Counted from the first letter of the stretch, positions 2,269 through 36,706 are shown. The stretch is DNA of 64,000 bases from Tubulanus polymorphus (GCF_964204645.1 NC_134026.1:11679950-11743949); one strand, 5' to 3'. A program made the numbers and translations. Notes: a model not told the origin generated them from the letters alone.

Positions 2269-2627
2269 TGATACAGAGGATAGTATTTATTTAATATCTA
2301 AGTCATTATTCAGTTTTCATTACAAACATGTTATACTATATTTCCGTATGTTAATCATATCAAAAGCAATATTGTCTTTATCTCTTTAATCCTAACCGTC
2401 CACTTCACTCGGCACTGGTCATTCGGACTTTGTCCTACTGACGTCTGGCCATTGTCTAGTGGAGCAATATAAATTCATGTCTCTCTATTCCTCGCTCTCT
2501 TTCTCTTTGGCTCTCGTTCTCTCTCTGAGCTCTTTTCTCTTTGACTCGTTTCAACAATAAATCAAGCTTTAAATTATTTCAATATCGTTTGTGTTTGGTG
2601 ACTATTCTGAGCTAGTTCCAGGTATCA
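2269..2627 (+). repeat. 5' LTR
   Basis: Direct repeat of 13237-13595 with no difference seen by eye; contains AATAAA. Confidence 0.97.
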
Positions 2628-2628
2628 T

Positions 2629-2638
2629 TGGTGGAGAA
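2629..2638 (+). promoter_or_regulatory. Primer-binding site, probably tRNA-Ala
   Basis: TGGTGGAGAA 1 nt after the LTR; complementary to the ...UUCUCCACCA 3' end of eukaryotic tRNA-Ala. Confidence 0.7.
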
Positions 2639-2810
2639 CCACGATCTCGGTAAGTGCATTTTTTTTAAAATTTACTTTCAATTATATCCACCCACTTTAT
2701 TCCGGTGCACTTATCTCGCATACCCCAAGCGAAGTGCTCTATCGTTACCATTTCTAGTTCCTTTCATTACTTTATTGATTTTATTCCTACAATTATTTTT
2801 GTTTCTTGCA

Positions 2811-4079: not shown

Positions 4080-4096
4080 GCACGGCTTGTATCAAC

Positions 4097-8500: not shown

Positions 8501-8535
8501 TCTTATCGTGTCGTTTTCCATCTATTTTTCAGACA

Positions 8536-11500: not shown

Positions 11501-11561
11501 TACTTATCTATATCTTTCATTCACGGATGGTAAAATGATTGCACTTCCGACACTTGATTAA
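8536..11561 (+). pseudogene. env: Env (class I, baculovirus F/errantivirus-like fusion glycoprotein), disrupted
   Basis: Signal peptide MMIYPIFFILMG after splice acceptor TTTTTCAG (8532); furin site and fusion peptide RSKR|GLLNFVGSISKSLFG; Cys-rich ectodomain; TM segments. Lesions: 1-bp frameshift near 8950, in-frame TAG 10776-10778, 534-bp tandem duplication. Confidence 0.85.
9141..10208 (+). repeat. In-frame 534-bp tandem duplication within env
   Basis: 9141-9674 repeated at 9675-10208; three substitutions seen. Confidence 0.95.
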
Positions 11562-17207: not shown

Positions 17208-18380
17208 AGGCGAATTCCAACCAAGATGAAGAATCCCTGTAGTGGTAGTTCAAGAGGAGGTGTTATCGAGTCGGCCCTGGGGCCGGGTTCAGATATTGGG
17301 ATCTGTCTATCGTCACTGACATTTCCGCTTCAGACTCAAGCCTTTTATTTATTTAATTTCATAGTTGTACCTCTCACCCCTCTCTCCCCCTAGATGTTCT
17401 TTCATAGCGTGAGTTAACCACATTTCGTACGAAATATTAGTTGAACGTGATTAGGCTGACGAGCCGTCATTTAGTGAGATATTGTGACCTTATCCTAGGG
17501 GTCTACTAGTAATACGAGTATTAAGAGTATTACGAGTATAAAAAGTATTACTATGAATGAGCACTACGAGTAGCGAGCAACATTCCATTTATAAATTTTG
17601 CGTTGTTGAGGCAATAAACATGTCTAACGTTACGTTTTACGAATAACGGTCTTATGTCTTTATTGAGTGGATTTCTGAGTCCGAGTCAGTTCAACCAGTT
17701 TCGGGAACAACTCTGGAACCGATAAGGACGCGCTACCCAGAACGAAGGAGTCCGAGTTGTTGTTGGTCGCCTTCAGGTTAAGGACGATTGGACTCGAAGA
17801 CCCACCTAGAATCGATATGAGGCACAACGTGTAGAGGGGATCCCCGACGAAGTTATTTGGCCCGACCCGTGCGTTAGCGAGGCCAAGCTGTAGACATCCT
17901 CGCTTGCTAGGGGTCCGGTATCACTCCCGAACTCGCTTCCACCAGCCCCCTGGCCTCACGAAGCGTGATTTCATTACTGGCGCTGTTGCGCGTGACGTCA
18001 TATATCGATTTGCGAAATACTTCCTTGTTCGGTAAAACGTTCGCTGATTGATCAATTTAACGGGAAAACCAACATAAGTCTACTGACGGTTTGTTACAAG
18101 CGCTGTGATTGGTACGACCGGATTCTGGTCGGCTAGTAACGACTCCAACGACTCGTGGGGTCAAGGGGTTCGGGGGAACAGCTTTAGCGTAGTAGTCAGC
18201 CAGCCAACCTTAAAAAACTATCCTAAAATTCGACGATCACGGCATTTTTTGTTACAGCTTGGCATCCGGGCTCATTTGATAGCAGAGTATGTGGGAGTAA
18301 TTGGGAAAGTAGGCTTTCAGGCCAGAGTACGAGAGTACTAGACACCACTCATCACCACAAGTAATTTTTTTTCCTTATAA

Positions 18381-18707
18381 ATGGGAGATAGAAAAGCATT
18401 CTTAGCAACAATAAATAACAGAATAAAACCAGCAAAAAAACAATTTGAAATAAAAAAGTTAGTTGATGTTACAAAAGAAATTGAACATAAAATATTGAAA
18501 TTAGAAAAGATAAAAACTAAATATGGAGAGAAAGTATCAGCTAATTTAAGCTACTGTAATGTTAGTACATCGCGAGAATTTAAAGTGTTTTTACCCGATA
18601 AATGGGTTTCATTGAGTACGGAGGAATTGAAAGATTTAGTAGGATTTAAAATAATATATCATGGGAAAAATGAAGACGGTCATCATGATTTAGAAATTGT
18701 TGATTGA
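18381..18707 (+). CDS. Hypothetical protein (starts inside the left TIR)
   Basis: 108-aa ORF preceded by the element's TAATTTTTTTT..ATAAATG motif. Confidence 0.7.
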   Translation: MGDRKAFLATINNRIKPAKKQFEIKKLVDVTKEIEHKILKLEKIKTKYGEKVSANLSYCNVSTSREFKVFLPDKWVSLSTEELKDLVGFKIIYHGKNEDGHHDLEIVD

Positions 18708-18713
18708 ATAAAA

Positions 18714-18748
18714 AATAAAAATAATGAATATCTAGAATCCAAAATGAC
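18714..18748. terminator. 35-bp repeat, putative 3'-end/termination signal (copy 1)
   Basis: 34/35 identical to 19593-19627; lies just downstream of the + strand ORF. Confidence 0.35.
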
Positions 18749-19050
18749 CTTAGTCGTTTTATAAACAACTACAATCATACAGTACATCTGTTACATGTTA
18801 TTATAAGAGAGTGCTTCATTTGAATATTGATCAATCAAACAGGTGTTGCACAACGTTGTTGTTATATAATAAGCACGCAGTACATACAACACACACAAGC
18901 CAGTTAGCTGGTATTGAATTACTACGTTTTCATTAGTTGCTGAAAACGAGGTTTATTTAAATTAGCTCAGCCGTGACAACAGGAGGATAGTCATCATTCT
19001 ATCGTGATTAAAAGGAATATTTCAATGTTTTTACGGTAAGTTTTAGCAAA

Positions 19051-19336
19051 ACCACCCGACTTGACTCGCAGAGTTTTTAGGGGATAAGCATCCCGTTATT
19101 GAGAGGCGCCACGAGATACCTATCCCCAAGCATTTCTACTTACACCCCTGTGACCCACACCTCACCAATTCTCCTTCAATGGTTGACAGGAAACACATTA
19201 TATTAAAGGCGCCTAATGCATTTCCTATCAACCCCTTACCCCCGAAAGGAGGATCGAAAGTCGAAACTGAAGGAGAACCACGGAGGGTGGACAAAGGTGC
19301 ATTTTCGAAATGCCCCTGCAAGCCAAGCCCGGCGGC
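19051..19336 (-). ncRNA. Putative highly structured viral ncRNA with two GGCGCC loops
   Basis: GC-rich island. Manual pairing on the minus strand gives a 22/23-bp closing helix and perfect 20-bp and 17-bp hairpins, with many G-U pairs that become A-C mismatches on the plus strand. TATATAA lies upstream at 19367-19361. Confidence 0.7.
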
Positions 19337-19592
19337 ACTCCAGTGGTTGAATGAATTACCTTATATACTTAGCTAAAACACCTAAGTAAATGTTGTTGGT
19401 GCTAAAAAAATATGTGAAATTTGAAATTATAAATTATTCCGAATGAAAAGAATGTAAGAATGAAAACTGATAAATGAATTATGTATTTTTAACTTAATTA
19501 TGATATAATTTTTAATCAAATTAGTAATCAATTACTATGTTAATTGATTAACAAATTCAAATTCAAATATTCAAATAAAAACAAAATAGATT

Positions 19593-19627
19593 AATAAAAA
19601 TAATGAATATCTAGAATCCGAAATGAC
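19593..19627. terminator. 35-bp repeat, putative 3'-end/termination signal (copy 2)
   Basis: Lies just downstream of the last gene of the minus-strand block; matches 18714-18748. Confidence 0.35.
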
Positions 19628-19712
19628 TTATCTGGATAATTTAATTGCTCCGCATAGATAGACAAAAGTAGTGAGATATTTAATTATTTTTTTTACTTTT
19701 TTTTCTAAAATA

Positions 19713-20081
19713 TTAATCCATTTTTTTTATTATCAATTTTGGAATTTCAGAAGTATTTTCATTTTTGATAGCAGTTGGTTCAGAATTACTAATATCATGA
19801 ATTTTATTTGATTTCTTATACCAATTACACCCAATCAAAATGAATACAATTACAAATCCAACTGTAAAATATAAATATTTATTAAATATTCTACTATCAG
19901 AAGGAGTAGAAATAACAATATTTTCACCATTTTTATTAACATTTTTATTACTTATTTTTTCTTTTACAGCTTTTTTATATTCTTGTGATTTAATTCCTAA
20001 TTGCCGAGACCATTCAATTTGTTTCTGAGTTCTCGGTTTTTTCTTCACAGTTAATTCCTTCACTTCTTTCACCTCGCTCAT
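19713..20081 (-). CDS. Hypothetical single-pass membrane protein
   Basis: TM segment YLYFTVGFVIVFILIGCNWY; TAAATG start. Confidence 0.75.
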   Translation of the reverse strand: MSEVKEVKELTVKKKPRTQKQIEWSRQLGIKSQEYKKAVKEKISNKNVNKNGENIVISTPSDSRIFNKYLYFTVGFVIVFILIGCNWYKKSNKIHDISNSEPTAIKNENTSEIPKLIIKKMD

Positions 20082-20619
20082 TTATTATAGAAATATTTTT
20101 ACTTTCAATATTTGAAAATGTTATAACCCCAGTTGATAATAATGTCATAAATCCACCTAATTGAAATGATAAATATCCAATCCATTTATTTAATTCAGTC
20201 ATAACTAAATAATCATTTTTTAAATCGGAATATAATCTATTTTCATCTTCAATTGGTAGTATATAATTACATAATTTACTATAACCTTTTACTACATTTT
20301 CTGATATCGCGTCATTAATTCTAGCTGTTCTCGCGGCTTCATAAATCTTAAATAATCTAATAATTTCATCTGATTTCATTGTATCTAATTCATTATAAGT
20401 TAAATTTTTACCGACAAAATTTTTACATTTTCCAGATGCTATTGATATTTCTAATTGATGTTTACAATAAATATAATATTCATAATTATTATTTGTTGTA
20501 ACATTATTTAAAGCACCATCATCTGGAGTTAATTTTGTTTCTGTTATTCCTAAATCATCTAAAGTTTTTTCAATTGGAACATCACCATTTTTAGATTTTA
20601 TTTTCTTTTCACCTACCAT
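20014..20619 (-). CDS. Hypothetical protein with C-terminal hydrophobic segment
   Basis: 201-aa ORF with the conserved upstream motif. Confidence 0.75.
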   Translation of the reverse strand: MVGEKKIKSKNGDVPIEKTLDDLGITETKLTPDDGALNNVTTNNNYEYYIYCKHQLEISIASGKCKNFVGKNLTYNELDTMKSDEIIRLFKIYEAARTARINDAISENVVKGYSKLCNYILPIEDENRLYSDLKNDYLVMTELNKWIGYLSFQLGGFMTLLSTGVITFSNIESKNISIINERGERSEGINCEEKTENSETN

Positions 20620-20651
20620 TTATATAACAAAAAAATTAATTGTGTGATGTT

Positions 20652-20903
20652 GCAACTAGAATTTAACTAGAATGTAACTAGAATTCAACTAGATTAACAA
20701 GCTAGTTGAAATATTGTTGTTTTTATTTATTTCTTGTTAAATCTAGTTGATTTTTTGTTTCAACTATTAACAACTAGAATTCAATTAGAATGTAACTAGA
20801 ATTAAACTAGATTAACAAGCTAGTTAAAATATTGTTAAATCTATTTGATTTTTGTTACAACTACCAATAACTAGAATTCAACTAGATTAACAAACTAGTT
20901 GAA
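20652..20903. repeat. Intergenic array of AACTAGA ~11-bp repeats with inverted CTAGTT copies
   Basis: Blocks of CAACTAGAATT.../AACTAGATTAACAAGCTAGTT repeated about three times. Confidence 0.85.
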
Positions 20904-20904
20904 T

Positions 20905-21513
20905 TTAAATAAATTCATATTTAAATGGGTGTTGTAATCTAAATAGTAATTTTGATCTTTTAATATTTTTCAACTTATCCATATATTCATTATGTAAATC
21001 ATGTGAAATAATATCATTTTCCTCAAGTGCATTTTTCATCGATTTTCTATCTTTATTGTAGAATAAAACTAGAAATCTAATGTTTTCTCTAAAGTCTTTA
21101 ACAATTGAATTATATTTTTGATTTAAAACCCAAGTTGTTATCCCAAAATGTCTACCAGAGAAAGCCAAATAACATAACTCACTTTCCCTAACTTTTGAAT
21201 CATGTAAATTTGCGCAATCATCTATGATAAATAATGTATTTGATCCTTTATAAATATCAATTGCTATTTTTATACAATTATCTAAATTTTCTTTTACTGT
21301 TTTAGGATCTAATATAATAAATTTATTATTCCTAGTAATATTTTTATCATAAGTTTGATTAAATTCATATGTTGGACAAAATAATACTATATTATCAAAA
21401 TAGTTTTCATAAACAGTTTCTAATAAATGTAATATAAAATAAGTTTTTCCACAATTTGTTACACCAGAAATTAACATATTATGAGGCTCAAATATGAATA
21501 ATTCCTTATTCAT
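20905..21513 (-). CDS. A32/FtsK-like DNA-packaging ATPase
   Basis: Walker A GVTNCGKT, Walker B LFIIDD, SGRH arginine motif, VLNQ, FREN. Confidence 0.92.
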   Translation of the reverse strand: MNKELFIFEPHNMLISGVTNCGKTYFILHLLETVYENYFDNIVLFCPTYEFNQTYDKNITRNNKFIILDPKTVKENLDNCIKIAIDIYKGSNTLFIIDDCANLHDSKVRESELCYLAFSGRHFGITTWVLNQKYNSIVKDFRENIRFLVLFYNKDRKSMKNALEENDIISHDLHNEYMDKLKNIKRSKLLFRLQHPFKYEFI

Positions 21514-22641
21514 TTATATATTTTTAATTTTACTTGATAATATCCATTCATTAAATTTATCTGGCCATCCAACCCTATTTACTAAAGAATATTTTTTTCT
21601 TTTAATAGTTTTTGTTTTTAATACTTTTTCAATTTTATATTCTTGTTCTAGATTTTCAGTAGTTAAACTTAATTCTTCTTCGTAAAAGTAGCCATCAACT
21701 TCTTCACCATCTAAATCTTCTAATTTATAGACATATGGTTTTGTTGTTATTACCTTTTTTATTTTATATATTTCCCTAGTAAAATTTCGATCGTATCCTT
21801 TGTCAAATATCTTTTTATACTTAGAAATTCTAACATTTTGACCAACTTTAAATTTAGGTTCACCAAAATCATCTACAAGAAATGCTCCATATAAATTATT
21901 CCAAACAATTTCAGCATTTTCAGGTTTTCTAGCATCAATAGGTTTCATTCCAATAGAAGAATGATAAGAATTATTATATCCTTCTATCAATTTTGGTAAA
22001 ACATCAATCCATTTAAAAGTATTATTTGCTGTAAAATATTTCCACATTCTTGTTCTTAATGTTCTATTAAATCGTTCAACAACTGCTGCTTTTTTATCTG
22101 ATTTTGTTGAAAAATTTTTAATATTATGATTATCTAAGAGTTCATGAACAAGTGAATTATCAAACTCTTTTCCATCATCAAATTGTATTTTTTCTGGTTT
22201 TAGTTTATCATCCGAAAGAAATTTTCTTAAAACATTTGATGTTTGTACAGCATCTTTTCTATAAAGTGGGAAACTCCATACATAACGACTAAAAATATCA
22301 ATTATATTCAATAACCACCAATAATCATCATTATCTTTCTTAACATTTTTCATATCAATTAAATCTCCTTGCCACTGTTGATCTACATAACTTACCATAG
22401 TTTTACGAGTTTTATATTTTCTAACAATTTTTTTATGTGTTGTATATGTTGGTTGTTCTAACATAAATTCATTTATATCTTTATATTTAACTAAATTTTG
22501 TGGGATTATCTTATCTAATTTATCTTGTTTTACTTTACGCCATATATTTTTAGTAGAAGAATAAGCAACCGAACTCTCAGGGTTGTAATATAAATTTCTT
22601 AAATATTGTTCTTTAGTATTAGGAGATTTTTTACCTCCCAT
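21514..22641 (-). CDS. Retroviral-like (rve) integrase with C-terminal chromodomain
   Basis: WQGDLIDM, IDIFSRY, DDGKEF, VERFNRTLR; KFKVGQNVRISK; IEKVLK..GWPDKFNEWI. Confidence 0.95.
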   Translation of the reverse strand: MGGKKSPNTKEQYLRNLYYNPESSVAYSSTKNIWRKVKQDKLDKIIPQNLVKYKDINEFMLEQPTYTTHKKIVRKYKTRKTMVSYVDQQWQGDLIDMKNVKKDNDDYWWLLNIIDIFSRYVWSFPLYRKDAVQTSNVLRKFLSDDKLKPEKIQFDDGKEFDNSLVHELLDNHNIKNFSTKSDKKAAVVERFNRTLRTRMWKYFTANNTFKWIDVLPKLIEGYNNSYHSSIGMKPIDARKPENAEIVWNNLYGAFLVDDFGEPKFKVGQNVRISKYKKIFDKGYDRNFTREIYKIKKVITTKPYVYKLEDLDGEEVDGYFYEEELSLTTENLEQEYKIEKVLKTKTIKRKKYSLVNRVGWPDKFNEWILSSKIKNI

Positions 22642-22671
22642 TTATATACGCTTAATTTTAACTTTATATTT

Positions 22672-23919
22672 CTAATATTGAATACTATCTAATTGTGAAT
22701 TTACAATATTTAATTGTGCGTCAGATAATATATAAATATGCATTTTAAAATTTTTGATTCCTTTATTCTTTTTCATGAATAATTGTATTCCATCTTTAGT
22801 GTTTTGTAGTTTTTTTCCAGAACCATGTAATGAATTATCTTCTGTTGTTCTAAAATCTAACCATAATGCATATTTATTACCGGTATAATAATCAATTTGA
22901 TTAATGTTACAATTTTCAGATGATTTTACTTTTTCATTCATAAAATGTTTTCTAATTTCTGGCCATTGATCAATCATTCTCATTCCTTGACAAAATATTT
23001 TATTTGCTATTCCTTCGATAGTTATTTCTACTTTTGTTATTTCAGGATTATAATAATTATCAACATTTATTGCACCATTAGAATATGTTGCAATAGTAAA
23101 AAATATTAATATACCTTTAATAGATCTTCTAGGAAAGTTAATATTCTCATTAATTATTTCATCATTTGCATTAATAGTTACAGTTTTAAATTTATCAATA
23201 TAATCATATAATAATGAAAATCCTTGATTGTATTGAGTTTGAATTGTGCTAGCAATATTTTCATTAGTTACTGTGTTATATTCTAAACATATATTTGATA
23301 ATTTATAACCCATATCTTTAACAACGCTAGATAATACAATTTCATTTACAGGAGCAAATGTTATCTCAAATATAATATCTTCTTGAATTGCGTATTTATA
23401 TAAAGGTGCATTATTATTTATCAATTCAAAGTCTAATGGAATTTTATATTTGCTTCCATAAATCTTTTTAATCAAATTATCTGTAGCACGAGTTACTACT
23501 GCATTATTGGCTTCAGATCTTAATTTATTATGGTTTTCCGATTGGATGCCTTGAAATATCATATTATTTCTATTTTCTTTAGTTAACCATAAATCTTTAT
23601 AATGCATAAATAAATTATAATCATCTAATGAGAAAACTGTTTCCGGACCAATCTTTATAGTTAATTTTTTAATCAAATATCTTCCAACATTATCAACAAC
23701 ATAATTGTTATCATGGCCAGTTACTTTTATATCGGCTGATAAATAAATACTGTTTGGAACATAAAAAGTATTTTGTGTTAATCGAGGGATTCTAACGTAT
23801 AAAGTTTCATCGGGATTAATATTAGAAGGGTTATGAGTAATTATATGATGTGATCTCTCTGCTTTAATAGCATTAGATATTCTATAATTCTTCGAAGGAC
23901 TTATATAACTCCCACTCAT
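22672..23919 (-). CDS. Putative double-jelly-roll major capsid protein
   Basis: 415 aa, beta-rich, no TM segment; size and position next to integrase and ATPase fit a Polinton MCP; not confirmed by search. Confidence 0.65.
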   Translation of the reverse strand: MSGSYISPSKNYRISNAIKAERSHHIITHNPSNINPDETLYVRIPRLTQNTFYVPNSIYLSADIKVTGHDNNYVVDNVGRYLIKKLTIKIGPETVFSLDDYNLFMHYKDLWLTKENRNNMIFQGIQSENHNKLRSEANNAVVTRATDNLIKKIYGSKYKIPLDFELINNNAPLYKYAIQEDIIFEITFAPVNEIVLSSVVKDMGYKLSNICLEYNTVTNENIASTIQTQYNQGFSLLYDYIDKFKTVTINANDEIINENINFPRRSIKGILIFFTIATYSNGAINVDNYYNPEITKVEITIEGIANKIFCQGMRMIDQWPEIRKHFMNEKVKSSENCNINQIDYYTGNKYALWLDFRTTEDNSLHGSGKKLQNTKDGIQLFMKKNKGIKNFKMHIYILSDAQLNIVNSQLDSIQY

Positions 23920-23953
23920 TTATTTAACAAAAAAATTAATTATTTATTTTTTA

Positions 23954-25405
23954 TCATGGTTTACTTGATATTTTTTTTGATATCATATTCACTAACCCAA
24001 AAATAATAGCACTTACAACAGTGATTAAAAATAAAATAATATGTTCAGCAGCAAAGTTAAGAATATTACCTGCAGATTTCAATATAAAACCAACAATTGA
24101 AGCAATAACTCCTGGCAATGCTGCAGCAGATTTTTTAGATAGTTCCCATAAATATTTTGCTAATTTCTTTAAACCATCTTTAACTTTATCTTGTATAGAA
24201 TTATTTCCTGGAGGTTTATCTGGTTTATTGGGAGTAGGAGTAGGAGTAGATTTCAGTGAATTTGATATAGCTAAACCTATTGTTGTAAATAACATAGTTA
24301 CAGCTGTTAGAATTGAAAGAATTGTTATTCCTTCTAATTTAAATAATAATCTTATTCTATCTTTTAATGATATTTCAGAATTTGGTTTAATCAACAAATC
24401 TTTAAAAATAACTTTTAATCTATTAATATTATAATCATATGATTTTAATAATAATTTAATTTCTTCTTTCTGAAATTCTATGTTATATTCTAAATCATCT
24501 TTTTCTTTTTCTAAACGTAATTCTTTTTGCCTATATTCTATTTCATCAATTACTTGATGATCTAAATCAGACTTTAGTTGTTCTATTTCTTTATTTTTAT
24601 CAGTTAATTCTTTTTCTAAAGTTCTAATTTTAAAATCTCTTATACTTTTATTATGTGCAATTTTATCAGATGCAAGTCTTATACTAATAATTTCTCTAAT
24701 TGCTTTATCAGAAAATATATCTAAATCTTCTAATTCTTGATCTGTTGCATCAAGTAATCCATTCGGTAAAAGTTTTTCAATTGGAACTTTATTTGATCTA
24801 TGTTTACTATTTTTGGAAGTTATATTCTGTTCAGAAGTTGTTTCTGTTTCTGATTTCTTTTTGATTATTTCAAATAATTCATTAATTCTTTGTTTAAATA
24901 CATCTATATTATCATCTATTTCTTTTTGTGTAACATCAGTTATTTCATTACTATTACTTATTATTTTAATTCTATCTGGTTTTAATTTTTCTAAAGTTGA
25001 TTCTGATAATATTTTATTTTTATTATTTTTATAAGTGATATCAATATAATAATCACCTTTCAAACGATAATAACATTTACCATTATCTAAAAATTTTAAT
25101 TGATCTGCTAAAAGTCCAACGTCTTCATCATTTATGTTAAAATTAGATTTTTCAATTAAATCTTCTAATTTAGGTATTTTGTTTAAATTATCTAAATCTT
25201 GTTTTACTAAATCTGGGTCTAAATTTTCAGGATTTAATTGTGATTCAGCATTTTTAATATAATCAGGCATATTTAAATTATTGTTATATTCTGGTTCATT
25301 ACCATCATTAAAACTTGTTTCATCAAAATCAGGTGGTTGTTCATCAGTTATACCAGGTTTATCAAAAGGATCCGTTCCAATATCTTCTACACCTTCTACT
25401 TCCAT
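23954..25405 (-). CDS. Coiled-coil protein with several C-terminal hydrophobic/TM helices
   Basis: Acidic N-terminus, heptad-rich middle, hydrophobic ITILSILTAVTMLFTTIGLAI and IILFLITVVSAIIFGLV. Confidence 0.8.
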   Translation of the reverse strand: MEVEGVEDIGTDPFDKPGITDEQPPDFDETSFNDGNEPEYNNNLNMPDYIKNAESQLNPENLDPDLVKQDLDNLNKIPKLEDLIEKSNFNINDEDVGLLADQLKFLDNGKCYYRLKGDYYIDITYKNNKNKILSESTLEKLKPDRIKIISNSNEITDVTQKEIDDNIDVFKQRINELFEIIKKKSETETTSEQNITSKNSKHRSNKVPIEKLLPNGLLDATDQELEDLDIFSDKAIREIISIRLASDKIAHNKSIRDFKIRTLEKELTDKNKEIEQLKSDLDHQVIDEIEYRQKELRLEKEKDDLEYNIEFQKEEIKLLLKSYDYNINRLKVIFKDLLIKPNSEISLKDRIRLLFKLEGITILSILTAVTMLFTTIGLAISNSLKSTPTPTPNKPDKPPGNNSIQDKVKDGLKKLAKYLWELSKKSAAALPGVIASIVGFILKSAGNILNFAAEHIILFLITVVSAIIFGLVNMISKKISSKP

Positions 25406-25421
25406 TTATATAATAAAAAAA

Positions 25422-26810
25422 TTAAAATTTAAAATATAATATTCCTCCGATTACAATTCCTATACAAGTTATAGCTAATTTAGTATTTTCATGTGATTTA
25501 TTATCATTATCAGTTTTAATTATATCATGTTGAATTTTATCAGTTTTTATATTTTCTAATGTATTGTAATCTTTTATTTTGGAATCATTATTTAATTTAA
25601 TATTCTTAGTTTTAGTTTCTGTTGATTGAATATGTTTTTTATTTTTTTCACCTTCCATTAATTTTGGAGCAGTAATAATCTTTTTATTTATATCATTTAA
25701 CCCAAATGAATTATTTATTGTTGCAGTTTTAATTAGATTATTATAACCAATTATATTTCCCATCTTTAATACTAAATCATTAGAAATAATTAACAGATTA
25801 GGGCCTATACAATAATTAAGTCTTAAATGAGATTTATCTAAATAATTTTGATATCTTATAATGTTTTCTGGAATCGATCTATTTTTATCATTATGAATTG
25901 AATCTTCAAATAAAACTTTAAATTGTTTTTGTGTATCGAATGATGTATTCAAATTTCCAATTATCGGTGATCTTGTTTCAACTTGTGATCCTAGAATACA
26001 AATCAAATAAGTTCTAATAGATTGATTTATTCTTTCTATACCTGATTTAGTAAAACCTTCACTATTTTCTAAAATAAAATAAACCCAACCATTATTGTTT
26101 TCTTGTTTTAAATGATCATAAAATTTCGGTAATTTATTGAAATTTAATGTTTCTAAATCCTTTGTTTCTATTTTACCATAACCTAATTTTTTATTATAGA
26201 TATTATAAAAACTATTAGATGGTATAGGAAGTGCACAATATTCTGCAATCTTTCTAGGGCAAGGAAGTGATCTTATTGTTCCAATTTTTATTCTAAAATC
26301 AGAATTATTTATATCTATATTAAATTCATTGCAAATTTTATAAAACTTTGATAAATTAATATTATTATCTAATTCTTTAAAATATCTAGATCCTGGTAAA
26401 GCGCACTCTAATTCATTTAATATTATTCTGATTTGAAAGTATGTATGAAATCTAAATAAACTTTGAATTAATTTATATTTAGAATTATTCAAATGATCAT
26501 TCCAACTAATTCCACATCCTGTTGTTGCACAATAAACAGCAAAATTTAATTGATTCTGCCAATACTTCATATTAGATTTTAATAACCATTGTTTTTCATC
26601 TTTCAATTTTTTAAAATCAATTAAATATACATGAAATATATTTTCCATCTTTGCATTAAAATTATTAGTTTCAGTAACATAAATATATAAATCAATTAAT
26701 GAATCTAAAACTTCATTTCTATATGTAATATCTTTATTAAAATCTATTGCTGGAATATTATATTTAATTGATTTATTATATTGGAAAGCTTTTGGAAAAC
26801 TATCTGCCAT
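25422..26810 (-). CDS. Hypothetical protein with C-terminal membrane anchor
   Basis: 462-aa ORF ending LAITCIGIVIGGILYFKF; conserved upstream motif. Confidence 0.8.
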   Translation of the reverse strand: MADSFPKAFQYNKSIKYNIPAIDFNKDITYRNEVLDSLIDLYIYVTETNNFNAKMENIFHVYLIDFKKLKDEKQWLLKSNMKYWQNQLNFAVYCATTGCGISWNDHLNNSKYKLIQSLFRFHTYFQIRIILNELECALPGSRYFKELDNNINLSKFYKICNEFNIDINNSDFRIKIGTIRSLPCPRKIAEYCALPIPSNSFYNIYNKKLGYGKIETKDLETLNFNKLPKFYDHLKQENNNGWVYFILENSEGFTKSGIERINQSIRTYLICILGSQVETRSPIIGNLNTSFDTQKQFKVLFEDSIHNDKNRSIPENIIRYQNYLDKSHLRLNYCIGPNLLIISNDLVLKMGNIIGYNNLIKTATINNSFGLNDINKKIITAPKLMEGEKNKKHIQSTETKTKNIKLNNDSKIKDYNTLENIKTDKIQHDIIKTDNDNKSHENTKLAITCIGIVIGGILYFKF

Positions 26811-26826
26811 TTATATAATTAAAAAA

Positions 26827-27261
26827 TTAATAATTTATTAATTCTTTTAATAATTTATCTTGTTCTTCAACTGTTATATGACCATTTAAACTTATTATAT
26901 AATCTAGTGTGTTCTTTAATTTATTAATTTCTTTTATATTAGTTTTAATTTTTTCTTTATTACTTTTTATATTTAATTTTGAACTTATACCAGTTAAAAC
27001 ACTTGAACTTAATCCTAATACACCAATTGATATAGCTAAAGGTGTTAATGGGCTGAATATTGCTAGAAATGTTATTACAGAACTAATTGTAACCGAACCA
27101 CTAATAATAAGATAATATATAATTTTACTTTTTAAATATTTTTTCTTTTTTATCTTTAAGTCACTTTCAAATTCTAATATTTGTTTTTCTAAATATGTTT
27201 TTAATTTAGTTTTATTTATATCATGAGGAATAATATCAATACTATCAACTTTATCTTCCAT
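26827..27261 (-). CDS. Two-TM hairpin protein flanked by coiled coils
   Basis: IIYYLIISGSVTISSVITFLAIF and LAISIGVLGLSSSVL. Confidence 0.8.
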   Translation of the reverse strand: MEDKVDSIDIIPHDINKTKLKTYLEKQILEFESDLKIKKKKYLKSKIIYYLIISGSVTISSVITFLAIFSPLTPLAISIGVLGLSSSVLTGISSKLNIKSNKEKIKTNIKEINKLKNTLDYIISLNGHITVEEQDKLLKELINY

Positions 27262-27280
27262 TTATTTAGAAAAAAAATTA

Positions 27281-27703
27281 CTAATTAGTAAACTTATAAG
27301 CAACAAATATAACAATAACTGTTCCACCTAAAATCCATATTATTTCATATTTCTGTTGTTCTTTACTTGGGGTATAATAATCTGATAATTTAGGTTTGTA
27401 AAGATGTAATTTTTCTTTATTTGTTACCGCGTTATATAAACTCATAGCATCATCAACTGATTGAAAATCTCTATGTGAAATCTTCTGATCATATAATTCT
27501 TTATTGATGTAATCCATATAGTTTTGTCTCTTTTCTCTATATTCTTCTGCAGCTTTATTGTATTTCTCTAACGCTAAGTTATGTCTTCTTTGTTCTCCTA
27601 ATGAACTATTTTTATCAATATGTTTAAATAAATAACCACCACCAGTAAATGCTAAAGCGTTAACAATTGCCGATCCTATAATAGTTATAATTGCAGAAGC
27701 CAT
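27281..27703 (-). CDS. Small protein with N- and C-terminal hydrophobic helices
   Basis: MASAIITIIGSAIVNALAFTGGGYLF...IIWILGGTVIVIFVAY. Confidence 0.8.
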   Translation of the reverse strand: MASAIITIIGSAIVNALAFTGGGYLFKHIDKNSSLGEQRRHNLALEKYNKAAEEYREKRQNYMDYINKELYDQKISHRDFQSVDDAMSLYNAVTNKEKLHLYKPKLSDYYTPSKEQQKYEIIWILGGTVIVIFVAYKFTN

Positions 27704-27727
27704 TTATTTAGCAAAAAAATTATGCAT

Positions 27728-27949
27728 TTATATGGGAGGAATATATTTTTGTTTTTCCAAATAATCAATTGTTAAATTAGATAAAGTAACTGCTAATGTT
27801 AACTTTAAAATATCATTTATATCAAATCTATCAACATTAACACTTCCCATTTTGAATACTTTTTTTAATACCATTGAATAACCAACAGTTCCAACTGATA
27901 GTAAGGCGCCATTATATAATCCAGTTATTATCCACTTATTATCACTCAT
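27728..27949 (-). CDS. Small hydrophobic protein
   Basis: 73-aa ORF with the conserved upstream motif. Confidence 0.7.
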   Translation of the reverse strand: MSDNKWIITGLYNGALLSVGTVGYSMVLKKVFKMGSVNVDRFDINDILKLTLAVTLSNLTIDYLEKQKYIPPI

Positions 27950-28133
27950 TTATTAATCAAAAAAATTACTATCATCAAAATATTTAGTTAACTTAGTGAT
28001 GATTATTTCAACATTTATTTCATTACTAGTTTCATTTGTATATATTTCAATTATTATTTTTTTGATATCATCGATGATAAAATCTTCATCTAATTCATAA
28101 AATCTTAAAGATTCTCTAATTAAATTAGTAATC

Positions 28134-28245
28134 TTATATAATAAAAAAATTAAAATTTAAAATATAATATTCCTCCGATTACAATTCCTATACAAGTTAT
28201 AGCTAATTTAGTATTTTCATGTGATTTATTATCATTATCAGTTTT
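28134..28245. repeat. 112-bp ectopic copy of 25406-25517
   Basis: Exact match by eye; sits where the polB/intein reading frame is cut off. Confidence 0.9.
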
Positions 28246-31200
28246 CTTCCAATGTTTCAGGTTCTATATTATAAATATTATCAATTATTTCATCAAATGA
28301 CATATGATTCATTCTTGGGTAAAATCTTTTATGTAATAATTCATCTCCAATTTTTATATCAGTTGGTTTTATTTCATCGCCATTTTGTTTAATTAAACTA
28401 TGATCTTCTGTAACATCTACAAATCCTAATTTAGTTCTAACTCTATAGATTTTCTTATTCGTTTTATGTCTAATAATATTATTTAATTTTTTCCATCCAT
28501 TTCTTGTCCAAACATCTATTAATCCATTTATTTGTATTAATTCTTTTTCACCATATGAAATATAAGATTTATTTTGATTAGGAATTATTTCTGAAATTCT
28601 TCTAATTAATATTTGGTTATTGTATTTTAATAATATTGGGGTGTCAGCTGTTACAGAATCAAAATATAATATTTCTATATGTTTTTCTCCAAAAAGTGGT
28701 TGTAAAACATTATAATAAAAATCATACATTAATAATTTTGATACTTCTAAAACAGTTGAACCAATAAATATAGGTTTATTAAATTTCATTGACGTTCTTT
28801 TTAATTTAACTGCTGTTAAATAATCTTCAAATCTTTTATTTCCTAAATGTCTAGGACTTGATTGTAAATGTCTTAATCTTTCAGAATTATTTACTAATTC
28901 AATATCATTTCTATTTCTAATATTTTCACATGTTTTACCATAAAAACTATTATTCATTAATTTGAAGAAATCTTTTTCAAAATCTGTTTTTGATATGGTT
29001 CTCTGTTGAGTATTGAAATCTATATATTTTTCTAACCACTTCGATTGATTAAATTCAATATATCTATGTACTTTCTTTAATTTCATTCCTTGTTTTAGAT
29101 AAAATTTTAACATTCTATAATGAACAATATAATTGTATTTATTATTTTGAGTAAGTATTAATTTTTCCGTAAAAACATGATCTTTCGGTTTTACTTTCTT
29201 CTGGTATTCACTTAAATAACTATCATCTACGGCTAAATGTTCTGGGCAATATGGCAAGTTTCTAGATTTAAATTTAATATGTTCAGGATATTCTAAATCA
29301 ACTACAAAGAAATAACCAATTGGTGCTTCATCTTTTAAACTCGTAATTGCGCTTTCCCAATCAGTTTTATCATCATTTTCAACTTCTGTTAATATAAAAT
29401 TTTTATATGGTTGAGGTTGCATCATTGCCCAACCATATAAATTATTGGCGTCAATATATAATAATTTATATTCATCATTTGCTTTAAAATACCTATCTCC
29501 CATAACACCACTAATTCCACCTCTAATTGATTTTTCAAATAATAAAACCATATCTGGTTCTTTTAATAAATCTAATTCTACATTTGTATATTTTAAACCA
29601 CATTGCCAGGTTAAACCAGGACTTGAATAACAATAACAAGGATCAACATTAAAATGGTTTAGATTAACTTCTCTAAACTTTTCAAATATATCTGCCAATA
29701 TCATAACATCTGATTTTAAATATAAATCAACTAATTCACCATGATTTTTCATATTAAAATGGTTCCAAATATTTAATGTTCTATTAAAAACTTCGTCTTT
29801 CACATACTCCTCTTTTAATTGATCATAAAATTGATCTTTTAATAATTCTGTTACATTAAAATCATCATGTGTTTTATAAAATTAATAAGGAATTGCGCCT
29901 TTATATCTCAATAATTTAAAATCTTGTACATTTGGATAATAATATCGAGTTATAATAAAATCATTATCAACTAATGATTTTGATAAATTATCTAATGAAC
30001 TTGCTAGAAATCTATAAGAATCTAAAAATCTAATGCAACCAAATTGAAATGAAATATAATTTTCAGATGTTTTAGCTAATAGTTTAAAATCATATTTTCT
30101 TACATTTGCTTCATTCATAGCATTATATTCTTCTATTTCTTGATTAATTGCACCCAATTTTCCCGATAATTGTTTTATAAATAGATGGGTATCATATCCT
30201 GATAAATTATGAAATAATATTGGTACGAAATTTACTTTTTTAGCTTGTAAATTGCAATCTTCATGAGCAGCTCCACGATATTTTGAATTTAAATGATCAT
30301 GATCTCTAACTTTTTTATCAAATGAATAAAAACGTTTTTCACAGTAACAACAATGAGTTGCATAATTAAAATCAATTTCATCTTCTTTTGTCATAACTAT
30401 TCTTTTATTTTTGTTTAATAATTTTGTAAAATCACTTTCTAATTCAATCATTTTATCACAAAAATCATTAACTACATTTTCACCTCTAAAAGAAATATAT
30501 TGACTTTCATATAATTCGAGATAATTTGATTTTATATAAATTCCATAAGCAGCAGCTCTTTGATGAACTTTTTTAATTGTATTTATAATTGGTGGGTCTT
30601 GTATTGTGTCTTCATTTAATTCATTTCCTTTATCCATTGATTTTAATAATTGCTTTTTGTTATATATTTCTTTTCTATCTTGATCAGTTAATTCTTTATT
30701 CAACGATTCAAAATCCCCATAAATTACAAATGGAACAATATTTTTAAATTTATGATTAGTAAATTTCAATTTATAATCTTTTTCTGTTGGCATTATTAAT
30801 TTACAAAAATCTTTATTATCACATAATTCTTTATGTTTTAATAATGTATTCTCAGTCATAAATTTAGATAAACATTTTCTACATAGATAAATTTTATTAT
30901 GATGATCACTTTCTGTTCTAAAGAATAAATCAATTTGTTTTAACCACATATAATGTTCATTTTCATCTTTTTTGTAATATAACAAATCTATAGCATTTTC
31001 ATCATCATAATATTCTGTTAAATATAAAGCTTCCAATGTATAATCTTTAATATTTTCACCTTTTGTCTTTGGTAATTGCATTAATTCAAATATATTTATT
31101 TTTAAATTATTAACTTTTTCTATTTTAGGAATCATTTTTATAGTTACTGGATATTGATCAATTTTATATAATGTTTCATATTTCCGGTAATCTGTTATTC

Positions 31201-32200
31201 TATAAACATGTTCTTCTGTTGGATGTAAGCAACTAATAATTGACCATAGAAAACATTTATTATCTTCATTTTGAATATTTATTACTGCTTTTGTTATAAA
31301 TGGTAATTTGATATAACTTGATGCTTTCATATCTTTTTCTGTTATAAAGTTTGAATCATTTTTAAACATTTTATTACTTTTTGATGTTTTATTTCTTTTT
31401 GTATTATAAACATTTAAATCTAAATATATAATTTCATTCAATGTTAAACCAGAACCCTCAAAATATCTTTCTTCAATATGACGTTTAAATTCATTTAATA
31501 TTTTTTCTAACTTCTCTTTTATTTGTGTTTTTGAAATTATTTCTTCAGAGAGTGTTTGAATATTATAATCCATTTTTTCTTCTGACTTTATAAAACTTAC
31601 TTTCCCAGAGATACTAATTTTTGGATATTCAACATCTGTTATCAAATCTAGTATTTTTTCTATTATTTCATTAAATTTACTATAATCTTCTATTGTTGTA
31701 CCTTTAAAGAATCTAAATATAATAGCTGCAGGGCCAATTTTACTATGTAATGTTTCTAAAATTTCAATTGTATCTTTTATTTCTAGTGAATCAATATAAT
31801 TTCTAACATTTTCCATGTAAGGTTTATTTGAAATGGATTTTGTTTTTGAAGTTGATTCTTTTACTTGTTGAGGTTTATTATCAAAATATTCTAATCCTAA
31901 AACATTTTTATTTAAATTTTTGTAATGTTTTTGTGATTCGAGATGTCTATTATAATTCCTTTTTACTATAAATTCGTTACAAACTTCACATTTTATTTCA
32001 TCCACATTCATATTTTCTAATCGTTCTTTTCTTTCATTAGAATTTTCTGGAGTTTCAAAATCTATTACATTTTTTATATGATTTGCAGATTTTTCATGTT
32101 TAGATTTATTAGATTTATCAATGTATTTTTTACAATATGGACAATAATATTGATTTTTATTGACATTATTGTTTTCTGGCTGGTGTTCATTCTCCCCCAT
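28238..32200 (-). pseudogene. polB: Protein-primed family B DNA polymerase with one nonsense codon and a truncated C-terminus
   Basis: N-terminal zinc fingers; YGDFES, FHNLSGYD and YLKSDV exonuclease motifs; DHDH..AHEDCN EndoVII-like insert; YIDANNLYG (motif A); KLMNNSFYGK (motif B). The two ORFs are in one frame, separated by TAA at 29882-29884. Confidence 0.93.
28246..28657 (-). other. Intein N-terminal splicing region inserted in PolB motif C
   Basis: Motif C Y-F-D is followed by SVTADTPILLK (block A), VWTRNGWKK, VDVTEDHSL (block B TxxH) and IKIGDEL instead of TDS. Confidence 0.88.
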
Positions 32201-35099
32201 TTATTAGGAAAAAAAATTACTTGTGGTGATGAGTAAAAAAAAAAAAATTACTTGTGGTGATGAGTGGTGTCTAGTACTCTCGTACTCTGGCCTGAAAGCC
32301 TACTTTCCCAATTACTTGTGGGCTATCATGTGTGGTGGATGCCTTTTACAATTTTTTCGTTTTTTGGCCTACAGGGGGCGTTAAAGTCAGACATTTTGAA
32401 ATTAAAACATCTTCATTTTCATTCGTCAAGGAAATACACTTTAAACTACTTTTGCTAAATAATTCGAATATCTCATCTTAGGTTTGGAGTAATTTTACAA
32501 TCTAAACCTTTTCTGAGTTGGGGGATTGCAGTGCATATAGCGCAACGTTAATTTTATGCATACATTCATTTGTTACCTAGTTACAGCAGCAACAATCGTG
32601 TAATATTCACTTGAAAATAGCAATTTCATATGAAATATTCATTTTAAAGGTTATTAGCTCAAATAGTGATGTTGTTAATGTTTTTTTGTTGATTATTTTG
32701 ATATTTCTTTAAACTTACTTATAACTCGTATGTACTTGGTCAATATCGGGATTAACTGTTTATTGGTTTCTATGGTAACAGCAATTCAAATCTGCGTTCT
32801 TCATCCGTCAGGTACCGGTATTTTGGGCGTTGGGTCTTTCGTGACAGACAGACAATAGTTTCTAAATCATAAGCGAAATGACGCAGTTGAGGCGGTAGGG
32901 TTTGAATAATTTGCTCGATCTCTAGAAAACCTTTAATTATACAGCGTAAGCTGCTTGCACTAATTCCTTTGTCTTTTTGTCTAAAGTCATGTTAAATTTG
33001 TGAGGCCCAGTAAAGTTCCAGGTTCTTCACTGACTGATAGTCGGTGGACCTGTGTTTAAATCTGCAGACTTAGGCCTGTACATGGGTTACCATTGTTGCA
33101 ATTCAATTGTTAGCAAGACGTAGTAATAAGCGGCCCAATACATGGCCGAAGACTTTAGGCAAGTTTGAGAACATTTGGAATGTCACGAAAGACCCAACGC
33201 CCAAAATACCGGTAGGCCTCTGACGGCGGATGAAGAACGCAGATTTGAATTGCTGTTACCATAGAAACCAATAAACAGTTAATCCCGATATTGACCAAGT
33301 ACATACGAGTTATAAGTAAGTTTAAAGAAATATCAAAATGATCAACAAAAAACATTAACAACATCACTATTTGAGCTAATAACCTTTAAAATGAATATTT
33401 CATATGAAATTGCTATTTTCAAGTGAATATTACACGATTGTTGCTGCTGTAACTAGGTAACAAATGAATGTATGCATAAAATTAACGTTGCGCTATATGC
33501 ACTGCAATCCCCCAACTCAGAAAAGGTTTAGATTGTAAAATTACTCCAAACCTAAGATGAGATATTCGAATTATTTAGCAAAAGTAGTTTAAAGTGTATT
33601 TCCTTGACGAATGAAAATGAAGATGTTTTAATTTCAAAATGTCTGACTTTAACGCCCCCTGTAGGCCAAAAAACGAAAAAATTGTAAAAGGCATCCACCA
33701 CACATGATAGCCCACATACTCTGCTATCAAATGAGCCCGGATGCCAAGCTGTAACAAAAAATGCCGTGATCGTCGAATTTTCCATGATTGGCTGGCTGAC
33801 TATAGTGGGTTCGAATCCCTTGACGGGTGAAGATGAGCTGTAGACCAGTACTGAGCGGCGGTATATTATCTGGCGCAGCCGTTGTGAGAAAATCTGGCCC
33901 GGAGAGCCAGTCGGTTACTGTGCCCGGCCTATTCGGTTACATTAGTACCGCCAGCGTTACTGGCGATTGTTAAAGTAGGCAGTGGACTTGTTGTTTACTA
34001 CATTTACATTACCCACTTAACTTAGAGCAACGCGTGACATCACGTATTATGACCTAGATTTTACGCTTACGAACTAGACTTTAGGATCTAACTTCAACAG
34101 CGGAATGTTCGATATCAATAAAGGTAATTTGTTTTTGAATTTGTTGTCTTTGACCCAAAGATCGCGGCTCGAAAAAATAAAGTGTGAATTGAATTGGTGG
34201 TGTTTATGCAGGGAAAAGCCAATTATCCGAGGCTGAGGCTGTGCATTGCAGATGTAAGTATAATCAACGAATTACAGCAAGGTTTGGTGCCCTCATTCAA
34301 AAATCGGGCACGGCAAGAACCACAGGGACTTATCACAATTGATATAGTTAGTTACCTAATCGTTGGTGGTTAAGTTTTTTAATCGGATCGGATGGGCTTA
34401 TACCACCAACGTTTACTTTAGGGATGACAAGGAAGGGCCAAAGGCAAAACACGGTTGAAAAAAGTAACACTTCAAAAATATACTTTCTATTCACTTCAGT
34501 CCACAATTAATGGCTTAAATCACAAACTAACACAGGTACCTTTCGAAGTAATCCAATTTGGAAGTTGCCGCGCATGCGCAGTAGTTTCCGCCGCATCATT
34601 ACGGTCACAGGCAAAAGCGAAGCCGTTTCATCCCTTGTTATTTTAATATAGTAAGGTGTCGCGCCCGCTGATACTATTACTGATCCTTAACAGCCAATTG
34701 TTTATCGAAACTCTATAGTGGATAAATAAACAACATCAACAAGAGGTATTTCTGTGATATTTTGAATTTATTTGCAGTTTAAATTTAGCACCATTCTCGC
34801 GAGATTATCAACAACCCGGAAGTAAAATCCAAGCCAGTTTACAAGCCCCTGTGCTTTCATACCCCCTCCCAAAATTTTTTATTTCTGTTTATTATTAATC
34901 AGGGAGGTCTGTAGTCAGTAACCTATGCATGATAGACTATGTGACCTATAAGGATTTATATGCCTAAAACTTTCAAGACGAAACGACAATTTTTTTTTTG
35001 GATAGTTTTCCAACTTATATTTCAAATCTTCGTGTTTTCCACAATAAATGATGAAAAATAAATTCTGATTGAAGAAAATGTGAATAAGTGTTGATTTCT

Positions 35100-35482: not shown

Positions 35483-36706
35483 CAATTGATAGTGAATGAA
35501 TATAACCAGTATCAGTGACCAACCCCAGTATCCCTCCTGTATAATAAAAATCAAGGGTGGCAACTACTAATCATCAATCTGAAAATAACCTCTCCACTTC
35601 AATCGACTGTAATTCCAAAAATCCTCAACCGATTCACATAAAATTAGCTTTAATACAAACTAGAAGACTTTTTGCTTCCAACGAGCCTATAACGATCACT
35701 GTAGGCCTACGACAAATATCTCACAACGAAATTGGCGTTTATTTACCGGAGATAGCTCAAAATGGAGGTGTACAGATTCTATGGTGGACAGCAAAATGGC
35801 AATTTTATTTCTGGGTTGTTGATAATCTCGCAAGAATGGCGCTAAATATGAACTGCGAATAAATTCAAAATATCACAGAAATACCTTGCGTTTATATTGT
35901 TTATCTATCCGCTATAAATTTCTGATAAAAAAAATGGTCGTTAAGGATCATTATCAGACGGTCGTGATGGTCTATATAAAATCACAAGGGATGAAACGCC
36001 AGGCCTCCGCTGTACTTAAATTGTCAGCCAGAAAGTTGGGACAGTCACGTGACATTCTGATGATGTCATCACATTTAAAACTTTAACATGAAAAGTTAAC
36101 ATATTCACAGATGGATATCAATTGTCAGATTATGATTCATATGAAATTAATAACTCATAAAGAATAAATTATGATCAAATATACAATTCATAGACAAAAA
36201 ATGCATTTGAATGTAAGTTATTCTCAAATATTTGTCGTATCATAGTTTCCATCTTAGATGTTTCAGGTTCACATTCACTCAAATAAGAAGCGTTAAGGTC
36301 ACGTGACTGTCCCAACTTTCTGGCTGGCACGACTTGAAGGCGTTTCACCCCTTGTGATTTTATATAGTAACGTGTTGCGACCATCTGATGATGATCCTTA
36401 ACGACCAATTGTTTATCGGAACTTTATAGCGGATCAATAAACAATATAAACAACAGGTATTTCCATGATATTTTGAATTTATTCGCAGTTCATATTTAGT
36501 GCCATTCTCGCGAGATTATCAACAACCCGGAAAGAAAACCCGAGCCCATCGCCAAATCCCTGTGGTTTTTTCACTTGAAACAATATTTTCTATGTGAAAT
36601 TTTTAGAGATAACCCTAACAAACTTATTTCTTATCAATGTTTTTTGATTTTTTTATGTTCTTCATTGATTTTTTTCCAATAAAGATGTTGTGAATTTGAC
36701 TTTGAT

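Follow-up and report, generated by a model that had tools for sequence, protein, structure and literature searches.

A truncated pol-c-type intein in the catalytic motif of a Polinton polymerase from an apparent animal genome

The stretch of DNA analysed here (64,000 nucleotides, hereafter the window) contains a Polinton whose polymerase gene raises the question of what interrupts its catalytic motif, and where the interrupting sequence came from. On the minus strand, the polymerase frame reads ...HIEILYFD/SVTADTPILLK...VDVTEDHSL...IKIGDELLH..., where DTDS is expected (the slash marks the insertion point, here and below). The preliminary description took the insert for an intein acquired from the RNA-primed PolB of a co-infecting large DNA virus.

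The carrier is a Polinton/Maverick (Table 1), with terminal inverted repeats, a target-site duplication of 6 bp, which is the rule for Polintons, and genes for a protein-primed PolB (pPolB), a retroviral-type integrase, and a packaging ATPase. The putative capsid protein has Atlas look-alikes at 0.97-0.98 that include Capsid_N/DJR clusters, a recognition of low value. Penton (minor capsid) and protease genes were not identified in this deleted copy by profile searches, PHROGs, or the Atlas; PHROGs gave no match for any of the eight proteins, and the Atlas gave none for a 462-aa ORF. Lacking a PF03175 match, a criterion given in the text of PMC8502044, the polymerase matches the divergent Beta / group 1 type in its sequence. 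Short direct repeats lie between two of the Polinton genes (20653-20903), and a partial second copy of the inner end of the terminal inverted repeat adjoins the right repeat (32190-32265). The far arm of the host inverted-repeat element retains an empty site with a single TGTGGG. Because the Polinton landed in the left arm of a near-perfect inverted-repeat element, its insertion is recent; the arms of this element (18225-18295 plus 32317-33781) are long and nearly perfectly inverted (370 + 126 + 71 nt).

Table 1. Features of the Polinton locus, numbered from the first nucleotide of the window.
Feature	Position	Strand	Remarks
Long-inverted-repeat host element	18225..33781	.	about 1.5 kb without the Polinton, non-coding; Polinton sits in its left arm
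Left target-site duplication	18290..18295	.	TGTGGG
Polinton/Maverick, 14,021 bp	18296..32316	-	nearly all genes on the minus strand; 77-nt perfect terminal inverted repeats, 6-bp target-site duplication, rve integrase, Pox_A32 ATPase
Left terminal inverted repeat, 77 nt	18296..18372	.	
Packaging ATPase, 202 aa	20905..21513	-	PF04665 Pox_A32, 48.6 bits
Retroviral-type integrase, 375 aa	21514..22641	-	PF00665, 40.8 bits
Probable double jelly-roll major capsid protein, 415 aa	22672..23919	-	weak Capsid_N match, E 0.011, under cutoff
Filler, 112 nt	28134..28245	-	100% copy of 25406-25517, at the junction; rest of intein and C-extein missing
Intein N-terminal fragment, 137 aa (137 codons)	28247..28657	-	runs from 28657 down to 28247; Ser1, block A SVTADTP, block B Thr83-x-x-His86
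pPolB polymerase core to motif C (...YFD), end of N-extein	28658..29881	-	72-73% identical to intein-free P0144-P0146; without PF03175 match
pPolB 5' part, 772 aa	29882..32200	-	closed by a premature in-frame stop at 29882-29884; collinear with the intact pPolB of L038
Right terminal inverted repeat, 77 nt	32240..32316	.	
Right target-site duplication	32317..32322	.	TGTGGG

The insert scored 36.6 bits against the TIGR01445 intein_Nterm profile (cutoff 24.5, E 6.9e-9), which, together with the polymerase frame, confirmed that motif C of the Polinton polymerase is interrupted by an intein; the search for Hint/intein profiles was thus positive, with Pfam PF14890 at 18.7 bits remaining under its cutoff of 35.8. 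Two PDB sequences matched the fragment at E<0.01, the intein endonuclease PI-PkoII (best) and a chain of 173 aa labelled DNA polymerase. The intein-free relative L038 aligns with the window at 81% identity over 3,572 nt, up to exactly 28658, where it reads HIEIMYFDTDSY. Its motif C, YFDTDSY, is uninterrupted at the point where the intein of the window begins. The insertion point is therefore exact, because the alignment stops at precisely this position and L038 reads YFDTDSY there. As in class 1 inteins, the insert is in frame and missing from homologues (L038 and P0144-P0146 are empty), and it starts with Ser and carries the Thr-x-x-His of block B (Thr83, His86). Insertion at D/TDS of PolB motif C is that of the pol-c allele, and the point is the same as in the YGD/TDS of Mimivirus according to the text of PMC549080, as had been claimed. 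Also as described earlier, about 137 aa are left, and blocks F and G and any endonuclease are gone. All of blocks C-G are missing from this copy, together with the terminal Asn and the +1 residue. On the sequence evidence, a real intein remnant at the pol-c site is confirmed in the window, and the core of the earlier reading stands.

The fragment is best matched by P0001 (65% identical) and by P0002 (68%); P0002 is a pPolB of 1,693 aa that carries intein and LAGLIDADG domains. Complete inteins, 346-354 aa long, were found in six Polinton polymerases (P0002, P0008, P0018, P0024, P0141, and P0147), and each of these inteins has Ser at the start, a retained block B, two G-F-[FY]-x-x-D-G motifs, and a terminal Asn before Thr-Asp-Ser; the Asp of block F is kept as well, and the polymerase frame is otherwise intact. 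Two LAGLIDADG motifs (blocks C and E) occur in all six, and PF14528 LAGLIDADG_3 was above cutoff in each of the five that were scanned. The penultimate residue is His in four of the six, Ser in P0002, and Lys in P0008, and Thr comes next in every one. Intact sister copies with LAGLIDADG and a terminal HN/TDS had been predicted; the endonuclease and the return to TDS through Asn are present, but His only in 4/6. RNA-primed PolB relatives end in Lys-Asn too. The alignment-based AF2 model of P0024 reached a pLDDT of 92.9 (31 only in single-sequence folding), and in this predicted model a Hint fold encloses an inserted domain; its PDB matches were TliVMA, PhoVMA, PI-PkoII, PI-PfuI, PI-SceI, and I-DmoI, the best being endonuclease-bearing inteins. 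Integrated multi-copy families of other genomes are apparently represented by cluster P0141, with 136 members on contigs of up to 1 Mb, and by cluster P0024, with 55 members on contigs of up to 825 kb. Related inteins were also observed at DQD/TDG of topoisomerase II, a second D/TD site (P0003, P0025, P0030, P0038, P0050, P0069, P0077, P0081, P0107, and P0118).

The window copy is dead, carrying an in-frame stop and a deletion with filler DNA. Its truncation corresponds to residue 138 of P0002, a full-length relative in which the first LAGLIDADG-type motif begins at 142, so that the intein of the window ends 4 residues short of this motif (block C). In its source, the filler ends exactly at the TAA preceding the start codon of the next gene (25405), a curious coincidence. 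The polymerase of L038, the closest intein-free relative, is followed by a convergent ORF of 697 aa that belongs to no known family (4375-6465 of L038), and a gene akin to it may have been lost in the deletion of the window.

Sequencing reads bear on both the damage and the state of the intein in related copies. About half of the words sampled came from four runs of a single study; X5, a raw WGS run with the same species label, belongs to another study. X5 contributed 17,113 reads on 5 kb, mostly 90-99% alike, which suggests a diverse multi-copy family. Depth in X5 rose from 208-259 within the intein to 462-496 immediately upstream of the site and returned to 224-238 beyond, and within the window's own subfamily intein depth is similar to extein depth. 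Since depth drops again beyond the site, its doubling there was not read as the share of empty copies in this subfamily. Reads depart from the window sequence at 28658 (133 reads) and 28654 (79 reads); judged by position, they may come from an intein-free subfamily whose sequence is too divergent to be mapped beyond this point. At the junction with the filler, reads diverge from the window sequence on both sides (179 on one, 177 and 158 on the other), with no listed piece spanning it, and the premature stop is not common to X5 reads; both lesions thus look private to this copy or to the assembly. Among the listed read differences in the intein (n=24; best-supported rows only, 40/344 and 40/93), 16 fall at third codon positions (P 9e-4), while none lies in codons 1-11 or at Thr83/His86. 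This third-position bias indicates purifying selection on the intein.

The distribution of the intein is patchy. It was found in 4 of the 120 listed pPolB matches (1,466 passed the cutoff) and in none of 28 metagenome loci, and searches of metagenome contigs with P0002 and of viral contigs with P0141 returned no loci. The extein tree, built with FastTree, holds 126 rows (the 120 listed matches, eight hand-added sequences, and the window, minus three dropped for short coverage); its eight intein-bearing rows need 7 changes, at least 6 of them forced by starred branches. The exteins nearest to the window, P0144-P0146, are empty at 72-73% identity, whereas P0002, which hosts the nearest intein, has an extein just 57% identical. 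P0008 belongs to the other polymerase class, with a strong PF03175 match, and a BLAST comparison of its exteins with those of P0002 gave no match; the inteins of the two are 46% identical. By sequence, then, the intein is present in both Polinton polymerase classes.

Filled and empty alleles were compared within two 90% clusters. Among the 15 members listed for cluster P0141, seven carry the intein, six lack it, and two give no information, and two of the 10 listed members of cluster P0147 are empty. The filled P0141 and the empty P0267 differ at 4/15 positions upstream and 5/15 downstream beside the site, compared with 0/105 and 2/280 further upstream; between P0147 (filled) and P0272 (empty), 3/30 positions differ beside the site and 0 in the other 517 positions compared. 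Such site-localised divergence fits flank co-conversion, and it fits equally the survival of resistant, uncuttable empty alleles. All six empty members listed for cluster P0141 read DTDA or DCDS, and these motifs occur in 21/43 empty rows of the intein-exposed clade versus 1/75 outside it. The altered motifs may possibly represent escape from the endonuclease, a lead in which the rows are near-copies and not independent, for which reason a Fisher test was not taken at face value.

The nearest kin outside Polintons bear on where the intein came from. In a tree of the splicing domain (87 rows, quick search, SH-aLRT only), eight Polinton inteins including that of the window form a clade (97), which lies inside a 17-row clade (97) with inteins of RNA-primed PolBs; a distinctive C-terminal motif, G-x-[PA]-L-I-V-x-N, is common to these inteins. 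The nearest non-Polinton inteins sit at D/TDS of RNA-primed PolBs, the position of pol-c kin, and Polinton and giant-virus-type inteins share 39-43% identity. In a tree of full-length inteins (47 chosen rows, quick search without bootstrap), the Polinton clade (99) and the viral clade (98) were left unjoined by the free search, and a constrained tree joining them is 21 lnL better. The phylogenetic comparison with giant-virus PolB inteins suggested in the preliminary description therefore yielded the grouping, at SH-aLRT 97 on the splicing domain, but the nesting was not recovered. The intein of P0147 falls outside the eight-member clade and inside a 96-supported clade of inteins from hosts with PolB- or topoisomerase-type junctions. 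A single origin of all nine Polinton inteins was not rejected by the AU test (p 0.51), which leaves a second independent invasion, by way of P0147, no more than conceivable.

In BFVD, the best matches that carry a name are the DNA polymerases of a phycodnavirus, of pandoraviruses, of Megavirus, and of a marseillevirus. Among the best 150 of 2,118 representative matches, nearly all long hosts have YGD/TDS-type PolB or topoisomerase-type junctions and none has a pPolB reference as its best match, a survey that draws on printed motifs and pPolB absence and in which the 'topo' labels are unreliable (one reference stretch apparently contained another intein). L007, a member of the viral clade, lies on a contig of GVMAG-M-3300020169-51, a marine genome listed under Imitervirales in the taxonomy table searched (PMC8575486); of the three close giant-virus genomes, this table covers that of L007 and not those of L004 and L006, nor does it cover that of L013. 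RNA-primed PolBs are favoured as the source because the diversity of the intein lies there, and entry into Polintons from the RNA-primed PolB of a giant virus is the best-fitting reading of the sequences, although the true donor may be unsampled in giant-virus collections dominated by protist-infecting groups. The earlier proposal of such an acquisition thus keeps its general form, but the intein of the window itself was probably not taken directly: its place in the clade of eight Polinton inteins suggests that its latest steps were from Polinton to Polinton.

Gene starts bear on a shared infection. Twelve of the 14 ATG-started ORFs of at least 65 aa in 18296-32316 begin at TAA/ATG, against a background of 29/322 and 14/191 ATGs (7-9%), and 11 of these 12 have T at the 10th base upstream. 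The same start was seen in 2/2 ORFs of L038 and 3/3 of L039, and in 0/7 large ORFs of the neighbouring transposons. TAAATG with an upstream T matches the vaccinia late-promoter pattern described in the text of PMC11980589. This would fit transcription by a cytoplasmic large DNA virus and a helper-virus lifestyle, with AT-rich start contexts as the alternative; no helper virus was found. The TAAATG starts may therefore be taken as indirect support for the co-infection history proposed earlier.

According to profile searches, the Polinton is flanked by a SCAN-domain gypsy with integrase before RT, an F-env gypsy, a Penelope, and a Harbinger-type fragment, a transposon set that we take to be typical of animals, and from these neighbours we infer an animal host. 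The named pPolB relatives come from a mollusc, a wasp, a mite, and a spider, all in other clades of the extein tree. Among the neighbours, the element at 2616-11561 is a gypsy with a chromodomain and a weak dUTPase match, followed by an F-type env ORF (Baculo_F); the one at 55159-59433 has a SCAN domain and an integrase upstream of RT-RNase H, a Gmr1-like order; and the Penelope-like ORF at 36683-39067 (794 aa, RT and GIY-YIG) is about 53% identical to its closest relatives.

Taken together, the window carries a truncated pol-c-type intein at D/TDS of a Polinton pPolB, and we consider it probable that intact relatives splice as predicted and that their LAGLIDADG domain cuts empty genes so that repair copies the intein in. 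The insertion point, blocks A and B, the full relatives with both endonuclease motifs, and the Asn/Thr ends were observed directly. To judge from motifs and fold, class-1 splicing through Ser1, the block B His, the terminal Asn, and Thr+1 would restore the catalytic motif. Patchiness and site-localised divergence suggest homing among Polinton copies and lineages, also across the two polymerase classes. More tentatively, the lineage may have entered Polintons from the RNA-primed PolB of a large cytoplasmic DNA virus whose replication compartment the Polinton shared. The stop and the deletion with filler DNA that break the window copy were seen directly.

Other explanations were weighed against this account. 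The intein might be ancient in Polintons and have descended vertically, with many precise losses and no recent homing; the eight Polinton inteins do form one clade in both trees (SH-aLRT 97 and 99), and change counts on a tree cannot tell gain from loss. However, its scarcity among the listed matches and loci argues against this, as do an intein closer to that of P0002 (68%) than the extein is (57%) when the nearest exteins are empty, the 46% intein identity across exteins that cannot be aligned, and near-identical pairs that differ chiefly at the site, so that we regard vertical descent as very improbable. Still harder to believe is a non-splicing or one-sided Hint domain (Hedgehog/BIL-like), or a relic that is dead throughout the family. 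The missing blocks C-G of the window copy, the PF14890 score under its cutoff, and the two relatives without a penultimate His would agree with such a domain, yet the full relatives keep Ser1, block B, the block F Asp, and Asn/Thr in an otherwise intact frame, a Lys-Asn end is likewise found in RNA-primed PolB relatives, and the third-position bias indicates purifying selection.

A more serious contender, though in our view an unlikely one, accepts that homing is real and changes the route, with entry by way of protist Polinton-like viruses, or transfer from a Polinton to a giant virus, in place of acquisition from the host's co-infecting giant virus. The full-length tree, which leaves the Polinton clade unjoined to giant-virus-type inteins, would suit this route, as would the one classified relative, a marine Imitervirales genome; the junctions of the long hosts among the best 150 representatives, nearly all of PolB or topoisomerase type and none best matched by pPolB, speak against it, and so does the position of the P0147 intein within the 96-supported clade of inteins from such hosts. 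Slightly less probable again is that the truncation is an assembly chimera of a multi-copy element and not a true deletion. X5 reads do break off on both sides of the junction and the filler is a perfect copy of nearby sequence, but X5 comes from another sample and study, in which a private lesion would look alike, and both element ends and the target duplication are clean. Such a chimera leaves the reality of the intein untouched.

The preferred reading, a pol-c-type homing intein later truncated in the window copy, can be carried further. It is conceivable, though rather doubtful as a whole, that the intein is live and homes among the Polinton copies of animal genomes in the manner of a natural gene drive: captured in the factory of a poxvirus-like or other giant helper virus, it would have jumped between both polymerase classes, and empty copies would have been driven to change the DTDS catalytic motif, elsewhere almost invariant, to DCDS or DTDA and so escape cutting. 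What appears to be new here is the class of host protein in which a canonical pol-c homing intein resides, and the Polintons of apparent animals show signs that it spread among them recently. An intein in the protein-primed polymerase of such elements widens the range of both host proteins and host organisms. Because inteins move between DNAs that share a compartment, it may record, at the molecular level, that animal Polintons and large DNA viruses have been in contact, which bears on the question of whether the former are viruses that depend on a helper. With filled, empty, and altered-site copies present in single clusters, homing and resistance also become testable in vitro.

In the literature searched, a set outside which most subscription papers, Repbase, and InBase fall, we found no report of an intein from a protein-primed polymerase or from animal DNA. 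The 2018 survey places eukaryotic inteins in fungi, algae, a few protists, and giant viruses, in a table without an animal group (PMC5784728), and the passages of PMC12220804 and PMC3671162 that touch on inteins mention them in general terms only. Jeong et al. 2023 (PMC10748475) use neither 'intein' nor 'LAGLIDADG' in their main text (0 occurrences each).

According to Ogata et al. 2005 (PMC549080), pol-c inteins at YGD/TDS are established for Mimivirus and archaea. As far as that text goes, the pol-c (site III) inteins of Mimivirus, other Nucleocytoviricota, and archaeal PolB resemble the present family in D/TDS, Ser1, the block B Thr/His, LAGLIDADG, the terminal Asn, Thr+1, and a length of about 350 aa (351 in Mimivirus). 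Unlike those hosts, the Polinton host is a protein-primed PolB whose exteins have no BLAST-detectable similarity to theirs, and the carrier is an integrating 14-kb element in a nuclear genome. Selfish-type nuclease domains within Polinton polymerases are also represented by the HNH/VSR insertions in Polinton pPolBs described in the texts of PMC10748475 and PMC11071308, which Krupovic et al. 2024 suggest to stem from intein invasions (PMC11071308). The relatives studied here differ in having a full splicing domain with LAGLIDADG, located in the catalytic motif. Beta adintoviruses / group 1 Polintons (Starrett et al. 2021, PMC8502044) are alike in the divergent pPolB without PF03175, rve integrase, packaging ATPase, capsid, and terminal inverted repeats, and differ in that 'intein' and 'LAGLIDADG' have 0 occurrences in the main text of that paper. 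Finally, nuclear scaffolds of Klebsormidium, Tetrabaena, and a labyrinthulomycete also contain a viral polymerase intein in nuclear DNA, as described in the text of Gallot-Lavallee et al. 2023 (PMC10710043). Those hosts are algae or protists, and their viral-like polymerases are discussed there with giant-virus endogenisation, whereas the intein family described here belongs to a multi-copy Polinton of an apparent animal, with both filled and empty alleles.
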